Shown: positions 4,672 through 48,897, counted from the stretch's first letter. The stretch is DNA of 64,000 nt from an uncultured Alphaproteobacteria bacterium (GCA_964647725.1 CAZYJI010000005.1:47190-111189), one strand, 5' to 3'. Notes: generated by a model not told the origin, from the sequence alone. Numbers and translations are program-made.

Positions 4672-5043
4672 TTATAATATTCCCACCGCTTTTTTAATAT
4701 CTATTAATACACCTTCTATATTTTTCTTCACATCTTCATCAGTAAATCGAATTACCGTAAATCCAAGATCCACTAATAATTTTTCTTTTCTAACGTCGTT
4801 TTCACAGATAATTGAAAAATTATGAGAAACCCCATCCAATTCAATAACCAATTTTTTATCAGCACAATAAAAATCCGCTATATATTTATGAATCGGTTGC
4901 TGTCTACGAAATTTTAATCCTGCTAATTTTTTTCCTCTCAATTCTTCCCATAAAATTATTTCTGCGGGTGTCATGTCGTTTCTTAAATTTCTTCCGCGTT
5001 CTTTCATCCATTCGCTAACTTTTCTTCCGGATAATTTCATCAT
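4672..5043 (-). CDS. DUF559 endonuclease-domain protein (Vsr/restriction-endonuclease-like fold)
   Basis: 123 aa with 'DFYCADKKLVIELDG...H' and 'GFTVIRFTDEDV', typical of DUF559. Inverted copies of the repeat element precisely flank the gene. Confidence 0.75.
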   Translation of the reverse strand: MMKLSGRKVSEWMKERGRNLRNDMTPAEIILWEELRGKKLAGLKFRRQQPIHKYIADFYCADKKLVIELDGVSHNFSIICENDVRKEKLLVDLGFTVIRFTDEDVKKNIEGVLIDIKKAVGIL

Positions 5044-6091: not shown

Positions 6092-6535
6092 TTAGTTATT
6101 TTGTATCGTTGAAGCTTGATATGGTTTCGCGGGACGCAAAAATGTTCCGGGAATTTTTTCATGCGCGGCGATGAATTTATTCATCGTGCCGTCATTGGCC
6201 ATTTCTTCGAAAACGGTGTTGATTGCGGATGCCAAACCAGTATCGCCTTTTTTAAACGCGAAACCGTGCGAAAATAAACGCACCGGCGCATTGACGGTGA
6301 TATCGCGCAATCTTCCAGGATTGGCCAACAAATACGGGGCGGCAACGGCGGCGTTATTGATCGCCACATCGGCCTTTCCGGTTTCCACGGCCAACATTAA
6401 TTGGGTGATATCGGTATTTTGCGGCATGGAATAGGTTTTGGCTTTGGGGTAATCGTCGCGTGCGATAAATTGGCTCATCTCCGCATCGACGGTGGCGATG
6501 ATGGAAATCAAAATTGTTTTTGTGGTTTGGGTCAT
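6092..6535 (-). pseudogene. truncated paralog (C-terminal lobe only) of the adjacent substrate-binding protein
   Basis: 147 aa. 'GKADVAINNAAVAAPYLLANPGRLRDIT...KPYQ' aligns with 'GRADVAFLNLAVAKDYMAQNPGKFKAIT...RPYQ' of 5103-6080. There is no N-terminal lobe or signal peptide, and the start overlaps the rsmG stop. Confidence 0.5.
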
Positions 6536-7184: not shown

Positions 7185-9137
7185 TTAGGCCACTTCACTT
7201 GTCGTTTGCGATTTTTGGCGCTGCTGTTTTTTCAAATAACGAAGCAAATTGACGATCGATGCTGGCGTAATACCGGAAATTTTGCTGGCCGCCGCGATAT
7301 TTACCGGCCGCACCTTGGAAAGTTTGGCAATCAGTTCCGCCGACAATCCACCAACCGCCGAATAATCCAGGTCCACCGGCAGTTTTAGATTCTCATCCCG
7401 CTGTGTCGAGCGAATATCTGCCTCTTGCCGGTCAATATAGCCGCTATATAAAGCCTCAATCGCGATTTGTTCGCGGATTGGCGAGGCGATTTGTGATAAT
7501 TCTGGCCAAATTTCTTGCAGCTTCTCAAAACCGATCTCTTTATACCGCAGCAAATCAAAGGCACTGCGGCGAATACCGTCACGGTTGATTTGAACACCAA
7601 AATTTTCCAATTGATTGGGCGTAATTTGTAGGCCCTGCATTTTGGCCTTACCACTATTCAAATCATTGATTTTATTATTGAAAGTATCCTGGCGGATGGT
7701 GCTGACGCAGCCAATTTTTATGCCGCTTGGAGTCAATCTTTGATCGGCATTGTCAGCCCGCAAAGACAGGCGATATTCCGCCCGGCTAGTGAACATCCGA
7801 TATGGCTCCGTCACCCCGCGCGTGGTGAGATCGTCGATCATCACGCCGATATAAGATCCGGTGCGGGATAAAATAAATTCTTCCGACGCAGCAGCAGCTA
7901 GCCCGGCATTGATCCCGGCGATAATTCCTTGCGCCCCCGCCTCTTCATAGCCGGTGGTGCCGTTGATTTGCCCAGCCAAAAATAATCCCGGCACTTTTTT
8001 GGTTTGCAGAGTCGGATAAAGTTCGCGCGGATCGATGTAATCATATTCAATGGCATAGCCATAACGTTTGACCAAAACATTACCTAATCCTTTGATGCTA
8101 CGCAAAAATTTGTCCTGCACATCGACCGGTAAAGAGGTTGAAATGCCATTTGGATAAATCGTATCATCATCCAGCCCTTCCGGTTCCAGGAAAATCTGGT
8201 GATGAGATTTATCGGCAAAACGCACAATTTTATCTTCGATCGATGGGCAATAACGGGGACCAGTCGTTTCAATCTGCCCAGAATACATTGGTGAGCGATG
8301 CAAATTATCGCGGATCACCTGGTGGGTTTCCGCCGTAGTATGGGTGATATGGCAAGGGATCTGCGGTGTGGTGATTTCGGTATTTAAAAATGAAAATGGT
8401 GTTGGTGGATTATCGCCCGGCTGCTGTTCGGTGACAGACCAATCGATGGATTTGCCATCGAGTCGCGCCGGCGTTCCGGTTTTCAGCCTTCCGATCGTAA
8501 AACCTAGGTTTTGCAAGGTTTCGCCGAGCCTGATCGCGGGCTTTTCCCCTATTCTGCCAGCCGGAGTTTTGGTTTCGCCTTGATGAATCAAACCGCGTAA
8601 AAATGTGCCGGTGGTAATGACCAAGGCGCCGCAAGAAATCACGGCACCGGAATCAATTTCAATTCCCGATACGCGGCCAGAAGAATCCAGAATAATATCT
8701 TCCACTTGCGCTGGAATAATGGTCAGGTTCGGATAGTTCAGTAGAATATTCTGCATCGCCTGGCGATATAGTTTGCGGTCAGCTTGCGCGCGCGGACCCC
8801 AAACGGCCGGGCCTTTGGATTTATTCAGCATTCGGAATTGAATTCCGGCGGCATCGGCGCATAAGCCCATCACCCCGTCCAACGCATCGATTTCCCGAAC
8901 CAAATGTCCTTTGCCCAAACCGCCGAACGCCGGATTGCAAGACATCTCCCCCAGCGTTTCGATTTTATGGGTCACCAAAGCCGCTTTAGCCCCAAGCCGC
9001 GACGATGCCGTCGCGGCCTCTGCACCAGCATGTCCGCCACCCACAACGATGACATCGAATTTTTGGGGATATCCTGAATTTTGCATGTCTTTTCTTATAG
9101 TTAGATCGATTTTAAAGTCAATAGTCTTTCCCAGCAT
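7185..9137 (-). CDS. mnmG: tRNA uridine-5-carboxymethylaminomethyl(34) synthesis enzyme MnmG (GidA)
   Basis: '[16 protein letters not shown]' FAD motif is present and the length is about 630 aa. The probable real start is Met18 at about 9086. Confidence 0.95.
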
Positions 9138-9178
9138 CTTCCTAAGATATTGATTTTAAATAAAAGTAATTTTATTCC

Positions 9179-9202
9179 AAATTGTTCCACGTGGAACAAT
9201 TT
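9179..9202. repeat. 24-bp perfect palindrome AAATTGTTCCACGTGGAACAATTT, copy 2, in the AT-rich mnmG upstream/divergent intergenic region
   Basis: Read directly from the sequence. It lies roughly 40-90 bp upstream of the mnmG start and about 105 bp upstream of the divergent 9308 gene. Confidence 0.9.
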
Positions 9203-9307
9203 ATAATATAATTCCTAATTAATTATATTTATTATACTAATATTATTATTTATCTAATAAAGATACAATTATTGCCTTATCGGTAATTTTGTAATATATT
9301 ACGCGGC

Positions 9308-10384
9308 ATGAATTCCAATGATCAAAACGTTTTTCCACGCGCCGCGTTCGGCGGGTTTGGCCATGAAACTTCAGCCGCGTACATGGATGAACATGAAGCG
9401 CATTTGAATGCCAGTATTGCGATGCGCGTCAAGACGGGTGAAAAAATTCGCGTGCTCGATCTTGCGTGCGGCATGGGCAAAACATCTTTGCGTCTGGCAA
9501 AAAGCGGCGCGGTGGTAACGGCCATAGATCTTAATCCCGAAACTCCCGCACACATTCAATCCGGACTGCAAACCGAAAATCTGCCGCAAGACCGCGTGCG
9601 CGTTATTACAAAAGACATGCGGCAATTGCCGGAAAAAATTCCGGGCGGCCCATTCGATTATATTTTATTCCAGCGCGCGCTGGATTGCCTGCCATACGAA
9701 GATGGCAAAAAAGTCATGCGGAAATTATCGGCGAATCTTAAATCCGGCGGCGGAATTTATTTGACCGTCAGCAGCCCGTCCGCCGATTACGCCAAAGATT
9801 ATGCCGGACAAAACAAACCCATCAAAACACGCTTTGATCGGCTTGCACCGGAATTTCAAATGGCACACCATTTTACCCAGCCCATTTGCATGTACCATCC
9901 GCCCGAATTGCGAAAACTTGCGGCAAAAAGTGGATTGCGATGCGAGCAACTATATTTATCCGCCGCCGGCAGCAATAAATTGATCGCAACAACACAGCCG
10001 CAAATATCCGCGCGCTGGATCGGCATCGCGGCCGCAGCAATCGTGGCATTTGCGGCATCGATACCGGTTTGGAATAATTTGCACCAAAGTTCCGATACCA
10101 TAGAAACCGTGGCAACACCGCAATCCAATCCCACCAAGATTTTTTCGCATATATTCAAGGTGGAGAACGGCAAGGAGATATTGGTTTTCACCACCGCGCC
10201 GGACACCGACCGCGATATGATTCAAGATTGGTTTACCAGCGATTTGGGCAAGGCTTGCCGCGGCAGCCGGTTATCCGGATATCAAAAAACCGAACAAACC
10301 GTGATGCAAAATGGCCGTCCCGTTCCATATGTCGAATATTTCCGCCAAGCCGAGGCCTGGTCCAACAGCCGTCAGCGGGGATAA
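9308..10384 (+). CDS. class I SAM-dependent methyltransferase fused to a TM helix and a C-terminal extracytoplasmic domain
   Basis: SAM motif I 'VLDLACGMGKTSL' and a post-I acidic 'AIDLNPE' are present. A TM helix 'WIGIAAAAIVAFAASIPVW' sits at about residue 230. Confidence 0.55.
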   Translation: MNSNDQNVFPRAAFGGFGHETSAAYMDEHEAHLNASIAMRVKTGEKIRVLDLACGMGKTSLRLAKSGAVVTAIDLNPETPAHIQSGLQTENLPQDRVRVITKDMRQLPEKIPGGPFDYILFQRALDCLPYEDGKKVMRKLSANLKSGGGIYLTVSSPSADYAKDYAGQNKPIKTRFDRLAPEFQMAHHFTQPICMYHPPELRKLAAKSGLRCEQLYLSAAGSNKLIATTQPQISARWIGIAAAAIVAFAASIPVWNNLHQSSDTIETVATPQSNPTKIFSHIFKVENGKEILVFTTAPDTDRDMIQDWFTSDLGKACRGSRLSGYQKTEQTVMQNGRPVPYVEYFRQAEAWSNSRQRG

Positions 10385-10691
10385 ATATCGCAAATACCGG
10401 TTGCGGGTAACCGCGCGGAAAAGTAATATTTGCCAGTTCGATTTTAATATGGATGGAAATCCCATGCCCAAACCCGCAAACAATCATCCTTGGCGCAAAA
10501 GCTCATTGAATACGCCAGTCAAATCCATACCGATGCCGCAGGGTATTGGCCTATCGCCGGATAGGCTCGCCGAATTAAGCGCGGAAATAAGGGACGCGGG
10601 CGCGCAAGCCCGGCAGCGATCCGCCAAAGCAGCAGCCAGATTTGGGTTGCAAGCACCTGATCGGGGAAGCAAATAAAACACGAGGAATAAT

Positions 10692-12386
10692 TTAAATCGC
10701 GGTAACTTTACCGCGCGCGGCTATTATCCGGTTACGTAATCCCGGCGGTAAAACATGATCGCTGGTTCCGTTGCTGCTTGACCCCGGCGCACCTTGCGCG
10801 TCGAGCAGCATGCGCAACCTGTCCGTGTCAATACATCTTGATAAAAATTGCGTGTCGCGTCCGCCCAGCGCCTCAAATTGCTCCGCAATAAATCTGTATA
10901 AGCGCTCGATTTTTCCGCTGCGCCTAACTTCATCGAGCGCCAATATCGAGCCCATATCTTCATCAAATACGGCCGCATAAAGACCAATAGCGGCGGATGA
11001 AAGACCCTTAAGGCTAAAAGGATTTTCCGGCGCTTCCGCGCTGTTTTGTTTTGATATCCTCAAATTTCCATTCACTCCATCCGGGGTTCTATGAGCGACC
11101 ATATCCGGACGAGCGATAGCCAAAGCCGCCCAACCACCAATTTCCAGCCCATATAATCCGGCATAGGCGGCAAAAAAACTGGAAATCCGGGGCATGTTCG
11201 CGGGATCGGCCTTGAATTCAAGATAAGACCGCCAAAGATGGCCGTGCAAAACCGACAAATCGTAATTTTTTTGCGGCGGCGAATCTAAGGCCCGCGCAGC
11301 AGTGCATTGTATCGTGCGCGCCTTGAATATAGGAATTTCCATTTGCTCGGCTATCTGCTGCGTATCGAATCCCATCCAATTCATTTGGCAAATTTTCAAA
11401 TCTTCAGCGCATAACCCGGCTTTCGCAAATCTCAGTACACAATAACTGGCAAAGGCCGGGGTCAAGAAACCATCGTTAATTTTATTCAAAACTTCATTAT
11501 CAAATGCGGCCAGCATTGCTTCCCGCCCATGCCCGTCCCCAAATAATTTTTGCGATATGCGGCGGAAAGTGCATTGAATCATTCCAATCTTCTGCCCGGG
11601 AAATAAGCATGTCGCAAAAGTGGTGTTGAATCCGTTCAAGTACCCCCACCACCCGATCATGACATCTGGTTCGATATGATGAATCTTGGCTATAGCGGCG
11701 ACGGCTTTTTGATAATCGGGGTCCTTTTTTCCAAAAGCTTCTTTAATTTTAGGATGCAATCTTGGTTTTGCCGGCTGAAAGGCGCGCGCAAGATCTGGGC
11801 CAAGCAAAATATATTCATAAAGGCGCGCCCGCACCATGGCTTGCGCCTCAAAGATAAAATTACGTTGATCCTTGCTGGTGGGGGGCAGCCCCAGCGCGGG
11901 AAACAGCGCATACAAATAATCCGTCAAAGATTTTTCAGAACACCCGATTTCTCCGGCCATTTGTTTTTGTGTGGCGGCCCCGGTATGGCATAAATGAATT
12001 GCTATCTCGCGCATTTTTCCGGTAATACCCAACACATCGAACACCGGGTTCAAAGTTTCCGCGGCAAAAACGACTGTTGGATGATGCGGCTGTGCGGCTA
12101 TGGCGTTCAAAAAAACCGGGCGGCGGGAACGGATCCCGTTGGTCGAAACAATTCCAAGTTGCGCCGCCATAATATCTACGCGGCCATGTATTTCTGCATG
12201 GGTCGATTCAACCAATCTTGCAATGGCGCGATGGGTTTTGCCCCGCAACAAATGGTATAAAATACTGATATCGAAAGCATCCCATTCCTTGGCCAAGGCT
12301 AAATTCGCAATAAACGGCCAAGATATTTTCGGCTCCGAATTATTTTTCAATCGCCGATTCGTCATGGGTTCATCCACTACCGACAT
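10692..12386 (-). CDS. hypothetical 564-aa protein with three LuxR/GerE-type HTH-like repeats
   Basis: Three segments fit the LuxR HTH pattern. They are 'LLRGKTHRAIARLVESTHAEIHGRVDIMAAQLGI', 'LCHTGAATQKQMAGEIGCSEKSLTDYLYALFPALGL' and 'MGFDTQQIAEQMEIPIFKARTIQCTAARAL'. The ORF overlaps the upstream ORF by 10 nt. Confidence 0.5.
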   Translation of the reverse strand: MSVVDEPMTNRRLKNNSEPKISWPFIANLALAKEWDAFDISILYHLLRGKTHRAIARLVESTHAEIHGRVDIMAAQLGIVSTNGIRSRRPVFLNAIAAQPHHPTVVFAAETLNPVFDVLGITGKMREIAIHLCHTGAATQKQMAGEIGCSEKSLTDYLYALFPALGLPPTSKDQRNFIFEAQAMVRARLYEYILLGPDLARAFQPAKPRLHPKIKEAFGKKDPDYQKAVAAIAKIHHIEPDVMIGWWGYLNGFNTTFATCLFPGQKIGMIQCTFRRISQKLFGDGHGREAMLAAFDNEVLNKINDGFLTPAFASYCVLRFAKAGLCAEDLKICQMNWMGFDTQQIAEQMEIPIFKARTIQCTAARALDSPPQKNYDLSVLHGHLWRSYLEFKADPANMPRISSFFAAYAGLYGLEIGGWAALAIARPDMVAHRTPDGVNGNLRISKQNSAEAPENPFSLKGLSSAAIGLYAAVFDEDMGSILALDEVRRSGKIERLYRFIAEQFEALGGRDTQFLSRCIDTDRLRMLLDAQGAPGSSSNGTSDHVLPPGLRNRIIAARGKVTAI

Positions 12387-13306
12387 GCGCTAAGTTGTTT
12401 AGCGCGCAACGTCCCGATCAATGGTCTCATATCCAAAGTTCGCTTACCGTTGCCCAGCAAGGATTGGTGCGTGGCCAGTTTTCGGGCCTCTTCGATTGAT
12501 AAAAATCCGCCGCTTAACAACAGGTTCACCGTGTTTTCCAATCGCAACGGTTGATTAGCCAGGACAGGCGCAGAAAATTCCAGGGCGGTGGCGTCCTTCC
12601 ATGCGTGCATCGTCCCGCCACCGTTATTTGCCGGAAACATAAGAACAAATTTCATGGTTTTGGCGCTGTCTTTGAAAAAAATCCAATGTTCCGGATTTTG
12701 GCCATCATTGGCAATCCATAAAGACAGTTGTTCAAAATCGAACAATACACCCTCTTTTCCGGCGTGGCGGCATCCCCGGTGACTGGCGCTGCCAAAAAAT
12801 GGGTTCTTTTCATTATAGGCGATTTGCCACAAAGGGTGATCGACCGATTTTAAATCTTCAACCAGCGGCGCCAATACTGGAACCGCCGCAAGCAGCGCCT
12901 TAAAAACAGTATCGAACGACTGCCCGGGAACATCGATAACCCGGTGCGATGTGTTTTTTCCATCCTGCCTTTTGCTCCAAACGATTTCGCGTTTGACGGT
13001 CTTTAAATCGCTATGATCCAATAAGTAGCCGGCGAATTCATTAGCCTGATCCCCGTCCATCCCATCGATCAGCAAATGGAATTGGGTATCCAAGACCACA
13101 TCAACGTTGATTCTTTGTTTTATCGTTCCTTGTTCTTCATCTTGCGCGCTCAATCCGATTCCCAAATGAGCCATGGTTCCACCGGCCACGAATCTCAGCA
13201 CAGCAAAAACCTTGCTGTCCTTATTGCGATGCCGGAATGTGAATTTTAAATTCATTACCCTACCTATAATTTTTGATATATTTTTTATGGCTACAAAATA
13301 GAGCAT
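12377..13306 (-). CDS. hypothetical protein (about 290-309 aa), first gene of a two-gene operon with the 564-aa protein
   Basis: Long ORF with no recognisable catalytic motif. The start is probably at Met18 (about 13255). It overlaps the downstream gene by 10 nt. Confidence 0.45.
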   Translation of the reverse strand: MLYFVAIKNISKIIGRVMNLKFTFRHRNKDSKVFAVLRFVAGGTMAHLGIGLSAQDEEQGTIKQRINVDVVLDTQFHLLIDGMDGDQANEFAGYLLDHSDLKTVKREIVWSKRQDGKNTSHRVIDVPGQSFDTVFKALLAAVPVLAPLVEDLKSVDHPLWQIAYNEKNPFFGSASHRGCRHAGKEGVLFDFEQLSLWIANDGQNPEHWIFFKDSAKTMKFVLMFPANNGGGTMHAWKDATALEFSAPVLANQPLRLENTVNLLLSGGFLSIEEARKLATHQSLLGNGKRTLDMRPLIGTLRAKQLSACR

Positions 13307-13455
13307 CTGTGCTCTTTTTGCAAACAGTAAATATGCTGGAATTTCAATAAATTAAGACATTAAAAAGCTGGTAGATCATTCGCGTTCAGCGTTTGGAGTA
13401 AACCGCAAGGAGATCCCTCAACATAACGTTCGGGATGACGCACCATTATGGCGCG

Positions 13456-14826
13456 TCACTTCCCGATGCAAAAATCGCGGAATACGATGTCCAAAATATC
13501 TTCGACATCGACCGCGCCAGTGATCCGGGCGATCGAATGGGTGGCGGTACGCAAATCTTCGGCTTGCAACTCCGGCGTATCTGCAACTACAAAACGAGTT
13601 ACAGCTTCCAAAGCCTGTTCCACCGCTTGCCGGTGGCGTATTCGTGTGATTTGCGGCGCATCGCCCAGACCCATATACCGCTCCGCCTGTGCGGCCAGTA
13701 GTACCGATATGGGATCAAGGTTATACCCGTCTTTGATCGAAATCCCGATAATATCCAACGCTTTGGGATAGGATTTTCGATACGCCTCTGCATCAAACGG
13801 CGATCGCAACAGATCGGTTTTATTGACCACCACCATATAATTATCGCCGGCGCCCAAATCCGAAACCTTAGAATCGTTATTTTTCAATGGCTCATCGGCA
13901 TCCAGCAAGATCATTTTAAAATCGGAACGGTCCGCCGCCATCAAACTGCGACGAATGCCTTCTTGTTCGATATCGTTGCTGGTTTCCCGAATACCGGCCG
14001 TGTCGACCAATGTCACCGGGTATCCGCGAATATCCAAATGTACTTCGATCGTATCGCGGGTAGTACCGGCCGTCTGACTGACAATCGCCACCTCGCGCCG
14101 CGCCAACATATTCAAAAGACTGGATTTACCCGCATTCGGCGGACCCAGTATGGCGACGGTCATACCTTCCCGTAACCGTTCGCCGCGCCCATTATCGGCC
14201 AGGTGATCTTTCATTTCTTGTTTCACTTGCAAAATATTTTGCTGTAATTCCGCGAAAATGCCGGGCGGAATTTCTTCGTCGGGAAAATCCAAATAGGCTT
14301 CCAAATGCGCCAGGTTATAAATTAACCGTTCGCGCCAATTGCGGTACAAATCGCCCAGCGCTCCGGACATTTGCCGTAACGCTTGGCGGCGCTGCGCTTC
14401 GGTATCGGCATCGATCAAATCGGCCAATCCTTCGATTTCGGTTAAATCCAGTTTGTTATTGTCAAACGCCCTTCGGGTAAATTCACCGGCCTGGGCAGGG
14501 CGGAAATCAGGCAGGCGGGCCAAGGCCGCCAATACCGCATGCACCACCGCCCGGCCGCCATGGGTGTGAAATTCCACCACATCTTCGCCGGTAAAGGAAT
14601 TGGGCGCAGGAAAATACAATATCAATGCCCGGTCAATAACCGCATGACCGTCTTGGTCGTATAATTCAACGAGCGATGCCAGGCGCGGCGCGGGGATTTT
14701 GCGCGCCATCCGTTCCAACGCTAAATACGCGCCAGACCCAGAAATGCGGATCACCGCCACACCGGACCGGCCGGGCGGGGTGGAAAGCGCAAAGATTGTA
14801 TCCTTTATATATATATCGTCTTGCAT
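13456..14826 (-). CDS. mnmE: tRNA modification GTPase MnmE (TrmE)
   Basis: G-domain 'GPPNAGKSSLLN', 'DTAGIRE' and the C-terminal 'CIGK' motif are present. Confidence 0.93.
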   Translation of the reverse strand: MQDDIYIKDTIFALSTPPGRSGVAVIRISGSGAYLALERMARKIPAPRLASLVELYDQDGHAVIDRALILYFPAPNSFTGEDVVEFHTHGGRAVVHAVLAALARLPDFRPAQAGEFTRRAFDNNKLDLTEIEGLADLIDADTEAQRRQALRQMSGALGDLYRNWRERLIYNLAHLEAYLDFPDEEIPPGIFAELQQNILQVKQEMKDHLADNGRGERLREGMTVAILGPPNAGKSSLLNMLARREVAIVSQTAGTTRDTIEVHLDIRGYPVTLVDTAGIRETSNDIEQEGIRRSLMAADRSDFKMILLDADEPLKNNDSKVSDLGAGDNYMVVVNKTDLLRSPFDAEAYRKSYPKALDIIGISIKDGYNLDPISVLLAAQAERYMGLGDAPQITRIRHRQAVEQALEAVTRFVVADTPELQAEDLRTATHSIARITGAVDVEDILDIVFRDFCIGK

Positions 14827-14884: not shown

Positions 14885-15427
14885 GTGTACAAGATGCAAA
14901 CAAAACCAAATTCAAGATTGCGCAGATGGAGTCCTTGGATTCTTGGAGTAGCGGGAGGATTGGTCGGAAGCCTGGCTGTGCTACAGTACGGTAAGGCCTC
15001 AAACCCTAAACCCGATCAGATCGAACTTATTCAGGCGCCAGCATTGCCCGGTGCAAAACAGGGATCTATGGGATTCAGGGTAAGGCATGACGGCGATCTT
15101 TATGAATTCTATCACGTGCAATTGCAAGGCCAGGCCAAAGATTGTTTGATTATTTTAAAAGGGATCGATCCCGATACCGTGGCCATCGCCGATGAAAATC
15201 GCGCCCGGGAAATCATGAGATCTATTCACGACAGGCAAAATCCGGGCGCCGAAAATGCCGAGGCCTTGACAAACATTTATGAAAAATTGGTGATGGGCGA
15301 TATTCTGCTGCTAAGGCCCAATCCAACCCAAAACCGATTTCAAGAAGAAAAGCCCAAGGGCGGTTCCCTTGCCAATCCCCTCAACGTTTTGCATCTGGCA
15401 ACCATACGGGGCGAAATGCGGCGATGA
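14885..15427 (+). CDS. hypothetical membrane-anchored protein (180 aa)
   Basis: N-terminal TM 'WSPWILGVAGGLVGSLAVL'. It overlaps the next ORF by 4 nt (ATGA). It may be a paralog of the next gene (YxKLxMGD / YARIRMGE; both end in MRR). Confidence 0.45.
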   Translation: MYKMQTKPNSRLRRWSPWILGVAGGLVGSLAVLQYGKASNPKPDQIELIQAPALPGAKQGSMGFRVRHDGDLYEFYHVQLQGQAKDCLIILKGIDPDTVAIADENRAREIMRSIHDRQNPGAENAEALTNIYEKLVMGDILLLRPNPTQNRFQEEKPKGGSLANPLNVLHLATIRGEMRR

Positions 15428-15975
15428 AATTAAAAATAAATACCGTCACTTTGCGATGGATTGGGATTGGATTTGTCGGTTTATTTACAACGCTGACAAT
15501 ATTGAATATTCACGTGCGCAGTCCGGTTGATCCGGAAAATTTTCCAACCGAACCTTTGAATGAAAACAAAGATGAAAATGCCGATACAGATTTTCCTTTG
15601 TTAGAACAAACCAAGGAAGACATCGCCATTAATCAAGAAATCGGCGATGCGCGGTATAAATTTATTTACAAATATCCAGTTTTAAATGCGGATGGATCCG
15701 TTCGCGCCTTAGATGGGCTGGATATCGAGGTCACGCCGTTTTTGGACGCAAAAAATCCACCGGATCAAAACCCAAAAACCTTATTATTAAAATTATATGC
15801 CCGCATCCGGATGGGGGAAAACGACGGTATCATCGATCCGGCCGCGGCCGGAATTATTATCGATACGATTTACAAAATGGATGAAGTTATAGAACGGCAA
15901 AATAAAGCCGCGCCATTAAGCCTTTTGCAGTCGCAAACGCTGCACCGTTTTTCCGCCTTGCAAATGCGACGATAA
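15424..15975 (+). CDS. hypothetical membrane-anchored protein (183 aa)
   Basis: N-terminal TM 'LRWIGIGFVGLFTTLTIL'. It is translationally coupled to the previous gene. Confidence 0.45.
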   Translation: MKLKINTVTLRWIGIGFVGLFTTLTILNIHVRSPVDPENFPTEPLNENKDENADTDFPLLEQTKEDIAINQEIGDARYKFIYKYPVLNADGSVRALDGLDIEVTPFLDAKNPPDQNPKTLLLKLYARIRMGENDGIIDPAAAGIIIDTIYKMDEVIERQNKAAPLSLLQSQTLHRFSALQMRR

Positions 15976-16224
15976 AATTTCGTCGATATCTTCCTTGGTT
16001 TTATAAGCGTACCAAACGCCTTCGGGATATATCACCATCACGGGGCCTTGTTCGCACTGATCCAGGCACCCGGCCGCATTGATGCGGGTTTCGGCGATGC
16101 CTAATTCCTTGGCGCGCGCTTTCATATAATCGCGCAGTTTTTCGGAATCCTTGGCGGCGCAAGATCCGCGTTTATGATCGTCGGCGCGGCGATTGGTGCA
16201 ACAAAAAACATGGAACTGATACAT
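15916..16224 (-). CDS. thioredoxin-like [2Fe-2S] ferredoxin
   Basis: 102 aa with Cys ligands in the pattern 'CCTNRR...C..C' and 'CLDQCEQGPV', as in NuoE-like 2Fe-2S ferredoxins. Confidence 0.65.
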   Translation of the reverse strand: MYQFHVFCCTNRRADDHKRGSCAAKDSEKLRDYMKARAKELGIAETRINAAGCLDQCEQGPVMVIYPEGVWYAYKTKEDIDEILSSHLQGGKTVQRLRLQKA

Positions 16225-16226
16225 GA

Positions 16227-16460
16227 TTATTTTTTCTTAGGCGATGGGGTGCCGCCGGCGCTGGATATGAAATCCTGCCATTGCTGCAATCCTTGCATGC
16301 CCATTTGCGCCCACTGCGCGAAAACATCGCCGTCCGCGCCGCTGCCCATCATTTCGCGGGTTTTGTCCATCCATTGTTGATGCAATTCCGTCACATCCGG
16401 CAGGCCCATAAATCGTCTGGCTTCTTCGGGTGAACATTCAATGTCGATTTTAACTTTCAT
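16227..16460 (-). CDS. small conserved hypothetical protein (77 aa), co-transcribed with the ferredoxin
   Basis: ORF ending 3 nt before the ferredoxin start, with an acidic/Gln-rich C-terminal tail. Confidence 0.45.
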   Translation of the reverse strand: MKVKIDIECSPEEARRFMGLPDVTELHQQWMDKTREMMGSGADGDVFAQWAQMGMQGLQQWQDFISSAGGTPSPKKK

Positions 16461-16511
16461 GCGGCACCTTTATGGCTGATAATCCAGGAATCATAGCAGA
16501 AAGCGATGTAA

Positions 16512-18530
16512 ATGCAAAAACCGCAAACTTGCCCACCGCTAAACCGTCTGGCCACCGAGAAAAGCCCGTATTTGCGCCAACATCAGGACAATCCGGTCGA
16601 TTGGTATCCATGGGGCGAGGCGGCGTTTGATGCGGCGCGCGCGCAAAATAAACCGGTTTTATTATCGGTCGGTTATGCGGCGTGCCATTGGTGCCATGTG
16701 ATGGCGCATGAATCGTTTGAAAATCCGGATATTGCCGCAGTGATGAATGATTTGTTTATCAATATTAAATTGGACCGGGAAGAACGGCCAGATCTGGATA
16801 TGATTTATCAACGCGCGTTATCGTTGATGGGCCAACAAGGCGGCTGGCCGCTGACCATGTTTTTAACCCCGGATGGAAAACCATTTTGGGGCGGAACTTA
16901 TTTCCCGCCCGAAACGCGGTTTGGCCGTGTGGCTTTCCCAGCGGTGATCAAACAAATCCGAAAATTATATGATGAACAGCAAGATAAAGTTCTGCAAACA
17001 ACCGGCCAGTTGGGCGCGGCGTTACATGCGGCGTTAAGCCCATCTGAAAAACGATTTGATATTGATTTATCATTAACCGACCGTGCTTGCGAAAGATTAT
17101 TGGAATCGTTCGATCCGGTGCATGGCGGGCTTGGCGATTCGCAAAAATTCCCGCAAGTGCCGTTATTGCATTTGATGTGGCGCGGATATTTGCGCACAAA
17201 AGATGCGGCGATGAAAAACGCCGTGATTAATACGCTGAATCATATTTGCCAAGGCGGGATTTACGATCATGCCGGTGGTGGATTCGCGCGCTATACGGTC
17301 GATCCGGAATGGCTGATCCCGCATTTTGAAAAAATGCTGTATGACAATGCGCAATTGATCGAAATATTGTCGCTGATTTATACCGAAACCAAAAACCCGT
17401 TATATGCGCGGCGCGTTGCTGAAACCATTGATTTCTTGCTGCGCGATATGAAAATAAAGTCCGGATCCGATTTTGCTCTTGCCGCATCGTACGATGCCGA
17501 CAGCGAGGGCGAGGAGGGCAAGTTTTACGTTTGGGACGAAGCGGAGATCGATAAAATTCTAGGGCCCGACAGCGTGGCGTTCAAAAAATATTACGATGTT
17601 CGCGCGGGCGGAAATTGGGAACATAAAAATATTCTAAACCGCCTGCAAACGATCAATCTTGTTGACGATGCCGCCGAGAAAAATCTGCAAGCATCTTTGC
17701 AGAAATTGTTCCGGGTGCGGGAAGGGCGGATAAAACCCGGATTCGACCACAAGGTCTTGTGCGATTGGAATGGGCTTGCGATATCAGCGCTGGTTTATAC
17801 GGGGAAAATATTCAACCGTGCCGATTGGATCGATGCGGCGCAAACAATTCTAAATTTCGTTAAAAATAATTTATATAAAGGCAGCAAATTGCTGCATTCT
17901 TTTACGGACGGCGCTGCCGCGCATCCGGCGACGCTGGACGATTACGCCAATATTATTCGTGGCGCGATATTGTTATACGAAGCAACCAACGAAGAATCTT
18001 ATTTACAATTCGCCCAGGAATTGGCCCAGCATTTAACCGATCATTATTGGGATCCTAAATCCGGCGGATATTTTTATGTTTCAAACGATACGGTCGATGT
18101 TATTTTACGCGCCAAATCCGCATCCGATCACGCCGTGCCGGCGGGCAATTCGACCATGATCGAAAATTTGATGCGGTTATATTATCTGACCGGCGCTCAT
18201 GAATACCGCGCCAAGGCCGAACAGATTATCGCCTGTTTTTCCGGCGAGGTTCTGGAAAATTTCTTTCCGCTGACGACTTATTTGTGCGGCCATGAATTCC
18301 TGCTGCGCGCGCAGTTATTTTGTGTGATCGGCCCGGATGCGGAAAAAATTGCCGCGCAAATCTGGCAGAATTCGGACGCCAATAAAGTTATTCTGACCGC
18401 CAAAGACCAATTGCCAGGCATCGATAAAACTCACCCAGCCTATGGCAAAAAACCGATCGATGGCAAAACGACGATTTATGTTTGCGATGGCGGCAAATGC
18501 CTGCCACCCATTTTTAAAATACCGGCATAA
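16512..18530 (+). CDS. thioredoxin-domain protein YyaL (DUF255, N-acylglucosamine 2-epimerase-like)
   Basis: N-terminal '[22 protein letters not shown]...[11 protein letters not shown]' is the DUF255 thioredoxin-like signature. Length is 672 aa. Confidence 0.82.
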
Positions 18531-18560
18531 ATAAAAAGGGCCCCGATTGGGGCCCTTTTC
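18531..18560. terminator. bidirectional rho-independent terminator between convergent genes
   Basis: Hairpin GGGCCCCGATTGGGGCCC is flanked by an A-tract upstream and TTTT downstream. Confidence 0.7.
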
Positions 18561-18580
18561 AGAATCAAGCTAAACAGAAA

Positions 18581-18994
18581 TTATTTGTTCTCGATAAAAT
18601 CCATAACTTTGGACGATGTGCCGTCAGCTGGAACAGTGACAACGCATTCTTTCGCGGTTCCGCCGCTGCCAATGGCACCAATGACTTGATTGGCGCGCGC
18701 GCTGCTCATCGTATCTGGTGTGCAGGTTGGCTGTTGTCCGTTGCAAACTTGCTGCGCGCGGTTGCAGGCGATCGTATCGCGATTAGGATTAGTTCCACAA
18801 ACGGTCATGCAGTGCGTACCGTACGGAGAATCCGGATCGGTTTTACAACATTCGCGGCACCAGCCCGGAGGCGTACCAGCATTGGAACAAGTGCAAGGTG
18901 TGGTGTTGATACAAGTGGCCTTCGCTGGCGTGGTGTATGCCAAAACGCCCAAACCAAACATCAATAAAAATAGGCAAAATTGAACGGTTTTCAT
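18581..18994 (-). CDS. secreted cysteine-rich small protein (137 aa; about 12 Cys in the roughly 110-aa mature part)
   Basis: Signal peptide 'FCLFLLMFGLGVLAYTTPAKA'. A Thr/Pro/Asn/Cys-rich domain follows (CINTTPCTCSNAGTPPGWCRECC...). Confidence 0.55.
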   Translation of the reverse strand: MKTVQFCLFLLMFGLGVLAYTTPAKATCINTTPCTCSNAGTPPGWCRECCKTDPDSPYGTHCMTVCGTNPNRDTIACNRAQQVCNGQQPTCTPDTMSSARANQVIGAIGSGGTAKECVVTVPADGTSSKVMDFIENK

Positions 18995-19176
18995 GAATAG
19001 CTCCCCTAATTGGCCAATAATCTAATTGTTCATTAACGGTCCCAAAACAATATGTCAATTCTTTAATAGGAAATAGATTGTAATATTATTACTCTTTGGT
19101 TGTTTTTGTTAGAGACATGGTTTTTGAAACATGATAAATGATATAATCCATTGTTACGATAGAGAGATATAAAATC

Positions 19177-46997: not shown

Positions 46998-48897
<1,900 letters not shown>

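Follow-up and report, generated by a model that had tools for sequence, protein, structure and literature searches.

Canonical LuxR-type regulators dimerise on a palindrome and carry their HTH as a single, C-terminal copy. In the AraC/XylS regulators MarA and Rob, one chain places two HTH motifs on DNA without dimerising, both motifs lying in one compact domain of about 100 amino acids. The locus described here, part of a 64,000-nt stretch of DNA from an uncultured alphaproteobacterium (the window), encodes a protein that differs from both. Sequence and profile comparisons support the description of this protein, probably 557 amino acids long, as all-alpha with more than one LuxR/GerE-like HTH unit within a larger scaffold, and a lineage-restricted multi-HTH DNA-binding regulator plus a partner appears to be the most likely reading of the gene pair to which it belongs. 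Compared with LuxR, FixJ and NarL regulators, in which one C-terminal HTH follows a regulatory domain, it seems to hold two or three internal HTH copies set within about 350 residues of unassigned helices, and no REC, Autoind_bind, LAL-ATPase/AAA or TPR match was found in it at E <= 1, nor any other known regulatory domain. Profile homology to the HTH core of the LuxR/GerE family was found for residues 121-167 and 339-371 and not for 42-81, and unlike GerE, NarL, DosR and VraR the protein stays below the gathering cut-off of the Pfam model GerE (PF00196). The likeness to AraC/XylS would be a functional analogy only, in that a single chain may likewise suffice; the units here are of LuxR type and about 200 residues apart, and AraC HTH families gave no match to the protein at E <= 1. 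A winged helix of the MarR/Lrs14 kind fits less well: Pfam MarR and MarR_2 score 13.5-17.8 bits against a cut-off of 24.6, no beta-wing is predicted (the models have no strands at residues 109-195), and profile-profile comparison points to the LuxR type instead.

Of the 70 other alphaproteobacterial loci in which mnmE and mnmG were both found, 66 have the two genes less than 700 nt apart. Here about 4.3 kb separate mnmG (7185-9137) from mnmE (13456-14826), which bears out a first, sequence-only reading of the window that had put about 4 kb of genes between them. The ORFs also lie where that reading placed them, at 9308-10384 (+, 358 aa), 10692-12386 (-, 564 aa) and 12377-13306 (-, 309 aa), and the two minus-strand genes are indeed co-oriented and tightly spaced. 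Their lengths of 309 and 564 aa and a 10-nt overlap between them had to be revised. The N-termini of the orthologs and gene calls on Logan contigs point to M18 for the first gene (12377..13255, -, 292 aa; longest ORF to 13306) and M8 for the second (10692..12365, -, 557 aa; longest ORF to 12386) as the most likely starts, which would leave an 11-nt spacer. M18 is favoured because the first ATG of the 309-aa ORF falls in the variable spacer of a promoter-like block, described below, where the sister genome has stop codons. The second gene is called at 557 aa on the Logan contigs, and an NCBI-sourced cluster member has the same length; residue numbers for this protein are given in the 564-aa frame throughout. 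The cassette adjoins the mnmE-mnmG-rsmG-parAB chromosome-maintenance block.

The sequence-only reading had regarded the whole region as an accessory insert into an otherwise conserved block. We dismiss this view because the core gene order is shared with a second genome, the sister MAG GCA_004295055.1 (L083), where mnmE is followed by genes of 311 and 521 aa, a convergent one of 68 aa, a variable gene and mnmG. Among the alphaproteobacteria sampled, the majority of the others have mnmE and mnmG directly adjoining. No other genome carries either gene of the pair, and in this one they again occur together; the pair is known from only two uncultured alphaproteobacterial lineages. Moreover, the rho-to-parB block holds Pfam-less genes at several places, and a neighbouring orphan, orf367, has diverged between the two genomes as far as the cassette has (39%), so rapid divergence is a general property of the orphan genes of this lineage. 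The insertion of a prophage or another mobile element was likewise rejected: there is no tRNA in the window, no flanking repeats, integrase or transposase were found at the cassette, the two operon proteins have no PHROG matches, and the GC content of the cassette (0.45-0.52) is similar to that of its surroundings. A search of the window for Rfam families came up empty. The region has long been part of the locus and evolves fast; it is not a recent acquisition. Its conserved unit consists of three genes, namely the two-gene operon and a convergent gene for a 70-aa basic protein, with the methyltransferase excluded.

The product of 9308-10384 (+) is a class I SAM methyltransferase with one TM helix; a membrane-anchored enzyme of this class had been proposed. 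Its domain spans residues 30-215 or so, with motif I VLDLACGMG read from the translation, and Methyltransf_25 scores 57 bits against a cut-off of 27, Methyltransf_23, 31, 11 and 12 likewise lying above theirs. A single strongly hydrophobic helix at residues 237-255 (nt 10016-10072; hydropathy 1.96 over 19 residues) is followed by a tail of about 100 aa. The protein shares the glycine-rich motif I and the Pfam models above cut-off with small-molecule methyltransferases of the TehB, UbiG and CpaM type, differs from them in the extra helix and tail, and matches no NCBIfam equivalog at cut-off (best 54 bits against 180). It had been included in one accessory unit with the other genes; this is not supported, as the methyltransferase is not part of the conserved core because in the sister genome an unrelated, Pfam-less gene of 339/365 aa takes its slot. 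A restriction-modification reading was considered and rejected. So was MADS defence: the match to PADLOC mad2 (E 2e-17) is confined to the methyltransferase core (profile positions 290-401 of 492) and reflects the generic fold only, and the neighbouring genes have no PADLOC matches.

Between the window and the sister genome, the cassette proteins are 31-54% identical (38% for the 311-aa, 31-34% for the 521-aa and 49-54% for the 68-aa gene) against 73-95% for the flanking proteins, and the cassette coding DNA is unalignable while the flanking DNA is 82-83% identical. Such a contrast could be the mark of an arms race, in which case the locus would be a conflict or interaction cassette that serves in defence or supplies an effector, secreted or directed at a host (for example a nucleomodulin), with HTH units that bind foreign or host DNA. 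The different genes in the neighbouring slot of the two lineages, the recombination hotspot seen between near-identical strains at the small gene and the DNA upstream of it, and the mad2 match would agree with this. We nevertheless consider it quite unlikely, given that orf367 has diverged to the same extent and that the mad2 match comes from a gene absent from the sister locus. The 557-aa gene has a pN/pS of 0.29 between strains, not above 1, and is therefore under purifying selection. Neither operon protein has a PADLOC match or a relative in IMG/VR or BFVD, no secretion signal accompanies the lack of mobile-element hallmarks, and the other functions encoded in the window are ordinary housekeeping ones, among which no secretion system was seen.

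In line with the reading that we prefer, a DNA-binding protein with several HTH units, no TM helix or signal-like segment is present in the 557-aa protein. Its AlphaFold models are all-helical, with low confidence overall. An exhaustive HMMER search of 1.84 billion protein representatives returned one true relative (P0003); a second hit, P0004, an 807-aa tandem-repeat translation with 10 short matching stretches, was rejected as a low-complexity false positive. A word-seeded search of 5.8 billion proteins recovered only the near-identical cluster of the window protein, and nothing was found in GTDB genomes, JGI metagenomes or IMG/VR, nor any Pfam, NCBIfam, PHROG or PADLOC model at threshold. 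PDB sequence searches with single proteins and two-sequence profiles gave nothing significant except MarR (E 0.034) on the second unit, Foldseek found no significant match for the single-sequence model in the PDB or for the alignment-based model in BFVD (E at least 0.06, TM at most 0.14), and literature searches on the accessions and on multi-LuxR-HTH proteins turned up nothing relevant.

The best supported LuxR/GerE-like unit is the second, at residues 121-167 (11886..12026, -), which hhalign aligns with a reference set of 11 Pfam-validated LuxR-type domains at 96% (E 1.8e-9) over 45 columns, template positions 12-56. It is also the only confident region of the single-sequence AlphaFold model (pLDDT 70-90); its PDB profile matches are MarR (0.012) and DosR (0.18), and in the ortholog eight HTH-clan Pfam families match it (seven in a full-length scan), all below threshold. 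The third unit, at residues 331-371 (11274..11396, -), is moderately supported, with hhalign reaching 83% (E 1e-5) over residues 339-371 and SsrB, EsrB and a NarL-type regulator as top PDB profile matches (E 0.2-1.2). There, GerE is the sole Pfam match of the window protein (13.4 bits, residues 331-351) and the top match of its ortholog (14.6 bits, residues 329-364), both sub-threshold. Three LuxR/GerE segments had been proposed from sequence, and independent LuxR-type HMM domain matches do fall at all three positions and nowhere else (residues 42-63, 139-163 and 339-360), while hhalign supports only the latter two. The 'triple' arrangement is therefore not supported: the N-terminal candidate, residues 42-81 (12144..12263, -), is in LuxR register and has no statistical support (hhalign 4%, E 0.01), its HMM domain score of -1.2 bits is at background level, its own PDB profile search found no HTH, and in Pfam it matches only an AsnC-type HTH at E 0.07. 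Confirmation by Pfam GerE, which had been suggested as a check, was not obtained either, every match being below the gathering score (11.7-14.3 bits for the isolated units against a cut-off of 23.5). The full-sequence LuxR HMM scores, 10.0 and 18.8 bits, take 4th and 2nd place in a set of 1233 real ORFs, and 1000 shuffles gave at most 4.8. When run against the PDB, a profile of all three units matched chains of the LuxR/NarL/GerE kind and of sigma region 4 almost exclusively (E 1e-4 upward), a result biased toward LuxR matches by the choice of segments according to a LuxR-like pattern. The units show no detectable similarity to one another (hhalign between segments E 0.03 or worse; leave-one-out HMMs fail), and a recent triplication was rejected on these grounds. 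Two more HTH-like stretches seen by eye, around residues 238-290 and 462-515, are unsupported (hhalign 1% or less).

As sigma region 4 and certain HTH folds do, the LuxR-like units might bind proteins instead of DNA, making the 557-aa protein a helical scaffold or an RNA-polymerase-associated (sigma- or anti-sigma-like) factor. The two best units are near-neutral to acidic (pI 6.0 and 6.9), which is atypical for DNA-binding domains, and phage sigma factors are among the BFVD matches, although none of those is significant. We think this improbable, to the same degree as a conflict cassette, since in both sequence and structure it is DNA-binding C-terminal domains of LuxR/NarL proteins that match best. 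A sigma-70 factor was rejected: neither Sigma70_r2 nor r3 gives a signal at any threshold, and r4-type matches (E 0.05-0.18) fall on the HTH units only. Less likely still is a fast-evolving all-alpha orphan with chance LuxR-like amphipathic helices, a lineage-specific filler without a functional HTH array, as the sub-threshold matches to curated libraries, the dissimilarity of the units, the low-confidence model and the abundance of Pfam-less genes in the region might suggest, against which stand the hhalign values of the two units, compared with about 1% in five control pairs of non-HTH orthologs (34% for ParB, a true non-LuxR HTH), and the recurrence of the signal at matching positions in a pair of orthologs with only about one third of their residues in common.

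For the multi-HTH reading, a means of expression can be proposed from the DNA upstream of the operon. A three-way alignment of the window, L083 and L001 identified a conserved non-coding block (13256..13350, -), whose 38-nt core (13350-13313) is identical to the sister genome at 37 of 38 positions and thus near-invariant although the coding DNA no longer aligns. Judging from hexamer spacing, we infer that the block is promoter-like, with a putative -35 TTGCAA (13323-13318), a 17-nt variable spacer and a putative -10 TATTTT (13300-13295), after which come a conserved leader and a Shine-Dalgarno-like AGGTAGGG (13265-13258); it was not among the promoters listed by a generic scan. Inside the core lies a 14-bp imperfect palindrome, CTGTTTGCAAAAAG (13327-13314). 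The window has no other site within 1 mismatch of it; further copies were not enriched, and no repeated candidate binding site was seen elsewhere in the window. This palindrome is the sole lead on binding to a palindromic box. A pattern scan also found a terminator-like hairpin, CGCGGTAAAGTTACCGCG then ATTTAAATTA, over the last codons of the 557-aa gene (10698..10715, -), which counts for little as such sites are no more numerous in the region than expected from shuffling.

In the protein encoded by the first gene of the operon, neither a TM helix nor a signal peptide is evident. The protein has the conserved motifs NPFFGSA-HR, LWIAN-G-NPE and FPAN-GGGTM and is 38% identical to its 311-aa counterpart in L083, TAH37985.1, whose gene occupies the corresponding position. 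Searches of Pfam, NCBIfam, PHROG, PADLOC and PDB sequences gave no match, its relatives in the 5.8 billion proteins are its own near-identical cluster and the sister ortholog, and nothing was found in GTDB genomes, JGI metagenomes or IMG/VR. The 557-aa protein is in turn 31-34% identical to the 521-aa TAH37986.1 across nearly the full length.

Taken as a whole, our best explanation, in which we have moderate confidence, is a three-gene unit built around a cytoplasmic multi-HTH DNA-binding protein. Just past the end of mnmE, a conserved block resembling a sigma-70 promoter would drive the two-gene operon, and the 557-aa protein would be a cytoplasmic DNA binder with at least two degenerate LuxR/GerE-type tetrahelical HTH units (121-167, 331-371; a possible third at 42-81) and further helical segments between them. 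Unlike a dimerising LuxR regulator, a single molecule might contact two or three separate DNA sites and serve as a transcription regulator or DNA organiser specific to its lineage, perhaps regulating its own operon through the palindrome-containing block as an operator, and the co-translated 292-aa partner may be its modulator or its output; we infer these roles and the DNA binding itself from the features described above. It is doubtful, but conceivable, that the locus represents a new class of DNA-binding system, in which a helical scaffold with several LuxR-type HTH units reads an extended or discontinuous site as a monomer, with the 292-aa partner, the 70-aa protein as a third component and a possible role in chromosome organisation or lineage-specific global regulation.

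If the multi-HTH reading is true, it would be an uncommon use of the LuxR/GerE fold, with several copies per chain instead of one per dimer subunit, and the protein family would be one that Pfam, NCBIfam, PHROGs and PADLOC lack. The finding has a small reach, covering only two uncultured alphaproteobacterial lineages with no link to a phenotype. For annotation, the case illustrates that 'hypothetical' orphans of deep-branching lineages can hide degenerate HTH domains that are revealed only by profile-profile and structure comparison, and that an apparent 'insert' can be an old, fast-evolving resident of its locus.

The small basic protein of 70 aa is encoded at 10464-10676 (+), a conserved gene missed by the sequence-only reading that is convergent with the 557-aa gene, their stop codons lying 15 nt apart. 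It is 49% identical to TAH37987.1 (68 aa, same position in L083), has a pI of 11.3 and an N-terminal motif NHPWR-x3-LN-P-K-x2-PMP-GIGLS, and gave no Pfam match. Compared with L001, the gene shows a pS of 0.17 and a pN/pS of 0.45, and 98 nt upstream are unalignable; it is a divergence hotspot between near-identical strains.

Between mnmG (7185-9137, minus strand) and mnmE (13456-14826, minus strand) the window carries a methyltransferase ORF of 358 aa (9308-10384, plus strand), a large unknown ORF (10692-12386, minus strand; 564 aa as longest ORF) and a first operon ORF (12377-13306, minus strand; 309 aa as longest ORF), positions for which the sequence-only reading and the ORF calls agree exactly. 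The GC content of the region (0.45-0.52) is the same as that of its surroundings, and searches of the window for tRNAs and Rfam families returned none. We compared the interval with 80 fetched alphaproteobacterial mnmG loci, in 70 of which mnmE stands beside mnmG. Its end lies less than 700 nt from mnmG in 66 of these 70, against a gap of ~4.3 kb in the window, so the block is indeed interrupted, as had been claimed. The MnmG of the window shares no more than 56-64% identity with its best matches among these loci, indicating that a close relative of the organism was absent among the returned species representatives. The four deviating loci comprise one of the Kiloniellaceae with a 587-aa TPR-like lipoprotein between mnmE and mnmG (L018, 7583-9346), a Denitrobaculum locus with a resembling gap of ~2.7 kb (L032), Pelagibacter sp. 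HIMB1485 with three unknown ORFs (L078, 7273-9862) and a rearrangement (L005). The presence of unrelated lineage-specific genes in the gap of a few other alphaproteobacteria therefore shows that this junction tolerates insertions repeatedly.

A second interruption, of ~8.5 kb and mostly of genes without a Pfam match, separates rho (23314-24588) from mnmE, an interval that is usually compact in alphaproteobacteria. It holds (14885-23253) mostly Pfam-less genes for products of 180, 183, 137 (Cys-rich), 345, 161 and 429 aa, in addition to a DsbH-like thioredoxin protein, a DUF6489 gene, a ferredoxin-like gene and a dienelactone hydrolase. Ordinary housekeeping genes are found elsewhere in the window (hrcA, dnaK/dnaJ, a phosphate-ABC-type permease, a histidine kinase, gshB, rsmI and a hemN-like gene).

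In an exhaustive HMMER search against 1.84 billion cluster representatives, the 564-aa protein matched the window's own 99% cluster and a single genuine relative, P0003 (521 aa; 34% identity at E 1e-62). Another match, P0004, was discarded as a tandem-repeat translation whose alignment falls into ten short stretches. The relative P0003 corresponds to TAH37986.1, a ‘hypothetical protein’ of the ‘Alphaproteobacteria bacterium’ MAG GCA_004295055.1, whose contig (L083) has the same gene order as the window: mnmE, a 311-aa gene, the 521-aa gene, a convergent 68-aa gene, a 339/365-aa gene and mnmG, followed by rsmG, two SBP genes, DUF559, parA and parB. Given this shared arrangement, the accessory insert is not a recent acquisition. 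The flanking proteins are well conserved between the two genomes (ParA 95%, MnmG 92%, MnmE 89%, RsmG 84%, DUF559 82%, the 325-aa SBP 80%, ParB 73% and the 147-aa SBP 73% identity), as compared with 38% for the 309-aa protein, 31-34% for the 564-aa protein and 49-54% for a small 70-aa protein. The flanks reach 82-83% nucleotide identity, and 9249-13444 is entirely unalignable. The methyltransferase has no counterpart in the sister locus, which leaves the two-gene operon and the small convergent gene as the conserved core. Rapid divergence is not limited to this cassette: an orphan at 1374-2477 and its ortholog in the sister genome share only 39% identity. This orphan (367 aa), as diverged as the cassette proteins, lies beyond parB, between parB and a holA-like gene, and gives a weak HTH-like signal near residues 266-278 (hhalign 16%, E 0.0016).

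Comparison with the sister locus also bears on the gene starts. Upstream of the 309-aa ORF, a 38-nt block (13350-13313) is identical at 37 of 38 positions; after 11-12 variable nt, conservation resumes and extends as far as the ribosome-binding site. This upstream region can be read as a -35 element TTGCAA (13323-13318) and a -10 element TATTTT (13300-13295) with a 17-nt spacer that coincides exactly with the variable part, and the 38-nt block contains a 14-bp imperfect palindrome, CTGTTTGCAAAAAG (13327-13314). We infer a promoter and an operator from these sequence features, with transcription predicted to begin ~7 nt beyond 13295. Further copies of CTGTTTGCAAAAAG with at most one mismatch were not found in the window, and looser matches occur at chance level. 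The first ATG of the 309-aa ORF (13306) falls within the variable spacer, where the sister locus has stop codons, and the ortholog's N-terminus falls on M18, in front of which stands AGGTAGGG. Most likely, then, the real gene spans 12377-13255 and encodes 292 aa. For the large gene, a start at M8, giving 557 aa, is supported by the gene call on the Logan contigs, an NCBI-sourced cluster member likewise of 557 aa and the length of the ortholog's N-terminus. From M8, the 10-nt overlap previously proposed for the two operon genes becomes an 11-nt spacer; the corresponding spacer in the sister genome is 12 nt.

The large protein had been described as carrying three LuxR/GerE-type HTH segments (roughly residues 35-75, 118-160 and 325-365; here units 1-3, at residues 42-81, 121-167 and 331-371 in the 564-aa frame), to be confirmed by Pfam GerE matches, all of which remain below threshold. 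At E <= 1, the sole Pfam match of the window protein is GerE at residues 331-351 (13.4 bits, cut-off 23.5); for the ortholog, GerE is on top (14.6 bits) and seven HTH-clan families come next, on residues 114-161, none of these matches reaching threshold, and isolating the segments did not improve on the full-length scores. NCBIfam and PADLOC returned nothing for this protein, and the sole PHROG match has an E of 0.38. In MAFFT, the three segments from both orthologs fell into a common register without guidance, and a profile built from them, albeit biased because the segments had been picked for a LuxR-like pattern, finds in the PDB little other than chains of LuxR/NarL/GerE type and of sigma region 4 (4wt0 1e-4, VraR 2.6e-4, DosR 4.6e-4, GerE 5e-4). 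Searched separately against the PDB, unit 2 finds MarR (0.012) and DosR (0.18), unit 3 finds SsrB (0.22) and EsrB (0.8), and unit 1 has no HTH match. The idea that the segments are repeats of each other was rejected: hhalign between segments gave E 0.026 at best, and leave-one-out HMMs missed the omitted unit.

We also used an independent LuxR-type profile of eleven sequences, ten of which were each verified as a GerE member by Pfam (E 6e-7 to 2e-24), the eleventh being taken from a search result. With filters off, hmmsearch placed domains in the window protein only at 139-163, 339-360 and 42-63 (4.6, 0.9 and -1.2 bits), and in the ortholog at 331-364 and 136-158 (8.4 and 7.5 bits). The whole-sequence scores (10.0 bits for the window, 18.8 for the ortholog) lie above the maximum of 1000 shuffles (4.8) and rank 4th and 2nd, respectively, among 1233 real ORFs of at least 200 aa from 82 loci. 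Sliding-window hhalign of the two-ortholog alignment against the same profile gave 96% for residues 121-167 (E 1.8e-9, 45 columns, template 12-56), 83% for residues 339-371 (E 1e-5), 4% for residues 42-81 (E 0.01) and at most 1% for all other residues. Control ortholog pairs of MnmE, MnmG, ParA, SBP and the 309-aa protein never exceeded ~1% (E 0.05 or worse), and ParB, a true HTH protein of another family, reached 34%. The LuxR resemblance may still be due to chance, a reading for which positive evidence is absent. Of the three claimed segments, all coincide with LuxR HMM domains and units 2 and 3 are backed by hhalign; unit 1, at 4%, is unsupported. The single-sequence AlphaFold2 model has a mean pLDDT of 41 and is confident only at residues 110-190; with the two-sequence alignment the mean is 47, residues 110-366 reach 50-81 and the model is all-helical, with 30 helices. 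Foldseek found nothing significant in the PDB (single-sequence model) or in BFVD. The modelled structure appears to contain a LuxR/GerE-like tetrahelical fold for at least one unit, most likely unit 2.

On the best-supported reading, the 557-aa product is a DNA-binding protein of the cytoplasm, restricted in lineage, and each chain carries two or possibly three degenerate LuxR-type HTH units. Canonical LuxR-type proteins carry a single C-terminal HTH, whereas here several are internal. MarA and Rob are monomers with two HTH, and by analogy a single 557-aa molecule would contact several DNA sites; it would be co-expressed with its 292-aa partner from the conserved promoter block, and as operator the conserved block with the palindrome is the obvious candidate. 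The HTH folds may instead serve protein-protein contacts, or the cassette may have a conflict-related or effector role, but positive evidence for either is lacking. The 557-aa family is absent from all curated libraries searched and annotated as ‘hypothetical’ by NCBI. The HTH fold as such is already known, and the significance of a DNA-binding 557-aa protein is limited by a family confined to two uncultured lineages, one unsupported unit among the three claimed and the absence of a functional handle.

Neither the single sequence of the partner protein (292/309 aa) nor its two-sequence profile matched anything in Pfam, NCBIfam, PHROGs, PADLOC or PDB sequences, and sequence searches found no relatives beyond the sister genome. 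The small convergent gene (10464-10676, plus strand; 70 aa, pI 11.3), overlooked by the sequence-only reading, encodes a basic protein that has a conserved motif at its N-terminus and matches no family. The 9308-10384 product exceeds the cut-offs of five Pfam methyltransferase models (Methyltransf_25, 57 bits), which by sequence makes it a class I SAM-dependent enzyme; no NCBIfam equivalog reached its cut-off, and the PADLOC mad2 match covers the methyltransferase core only. One hydrophobic helix (residues 237-255, Kyte-Doolittle 1.96) followed by ~100 residues agrees with the membrane methyltransferase with a C-terminal domain proposed before, and from this topology the tail would be periplasmic. 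Its slot in the sister genome is occupied by an unrelated, Pfam-less gene (339/365 aa), which argues against the methyltransferase forming one unit with the operon genes. Between the divergent mnmG and methyltransferase genes, within a stretch still alignable with the sister genome, lies a 52-bp near-palindrome (9165-9216) of two abutting 26-nt arms, 85% complementary, which may be an operator or other cis element.

The same locus is present in two Logan assemblies (SRR27901409 and SRR27197517) at ~99% nucleotide identity. Divergence along it is mosaic, with a pS of 0 in most genes and 0.10-0.20 in the ferredoxin-like and DsbH-like genes. The small 70-aa gene has a pS of 0.17 and differs at 9% of nucleotides between strains otherwise ~99% identical, and the 98 nt upstream of it (10385-10482; 11884-11988 in the near-identical strain locus L001) are unalignable; together, 10385-10482 and 10464-10676 form a local recombination or replacement tract. 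The pN/pS ratios, from few substitutions, are 0.29 for the 557-aa gene and 0.45 for the small gene, indicating that these are genuine coding genes, subject to relaxed purifying selection and to recombination, and giving no indication of positive selection in either.

Elsewhere in the window, a DUF559 gene (Vsr-like endonuclease fold; 4672-5043), 82% conserved in the sister genome, is flanked by parA and the SBP genes. Of the two SBP_bac_3 solute-binding genes by rsmG, the first (6092-6535) is shortened to 147 aa, as compared with 313 aa in L083 (8592-9533), of which ~497 nt (8628-9124) lack a counterpart at ~6500 of the window. The dnaK gene (46998-48897) is split over two frames, 46998-47957 encoding ~260 N-terminal aa and then nonsense and 47608-48897 covering Hsp70 profile positions 262-599, which implies a single-nucleotide indel near 47770-47790; either the assembly is wrong here or this essential chaperone gene is a pseudogene.
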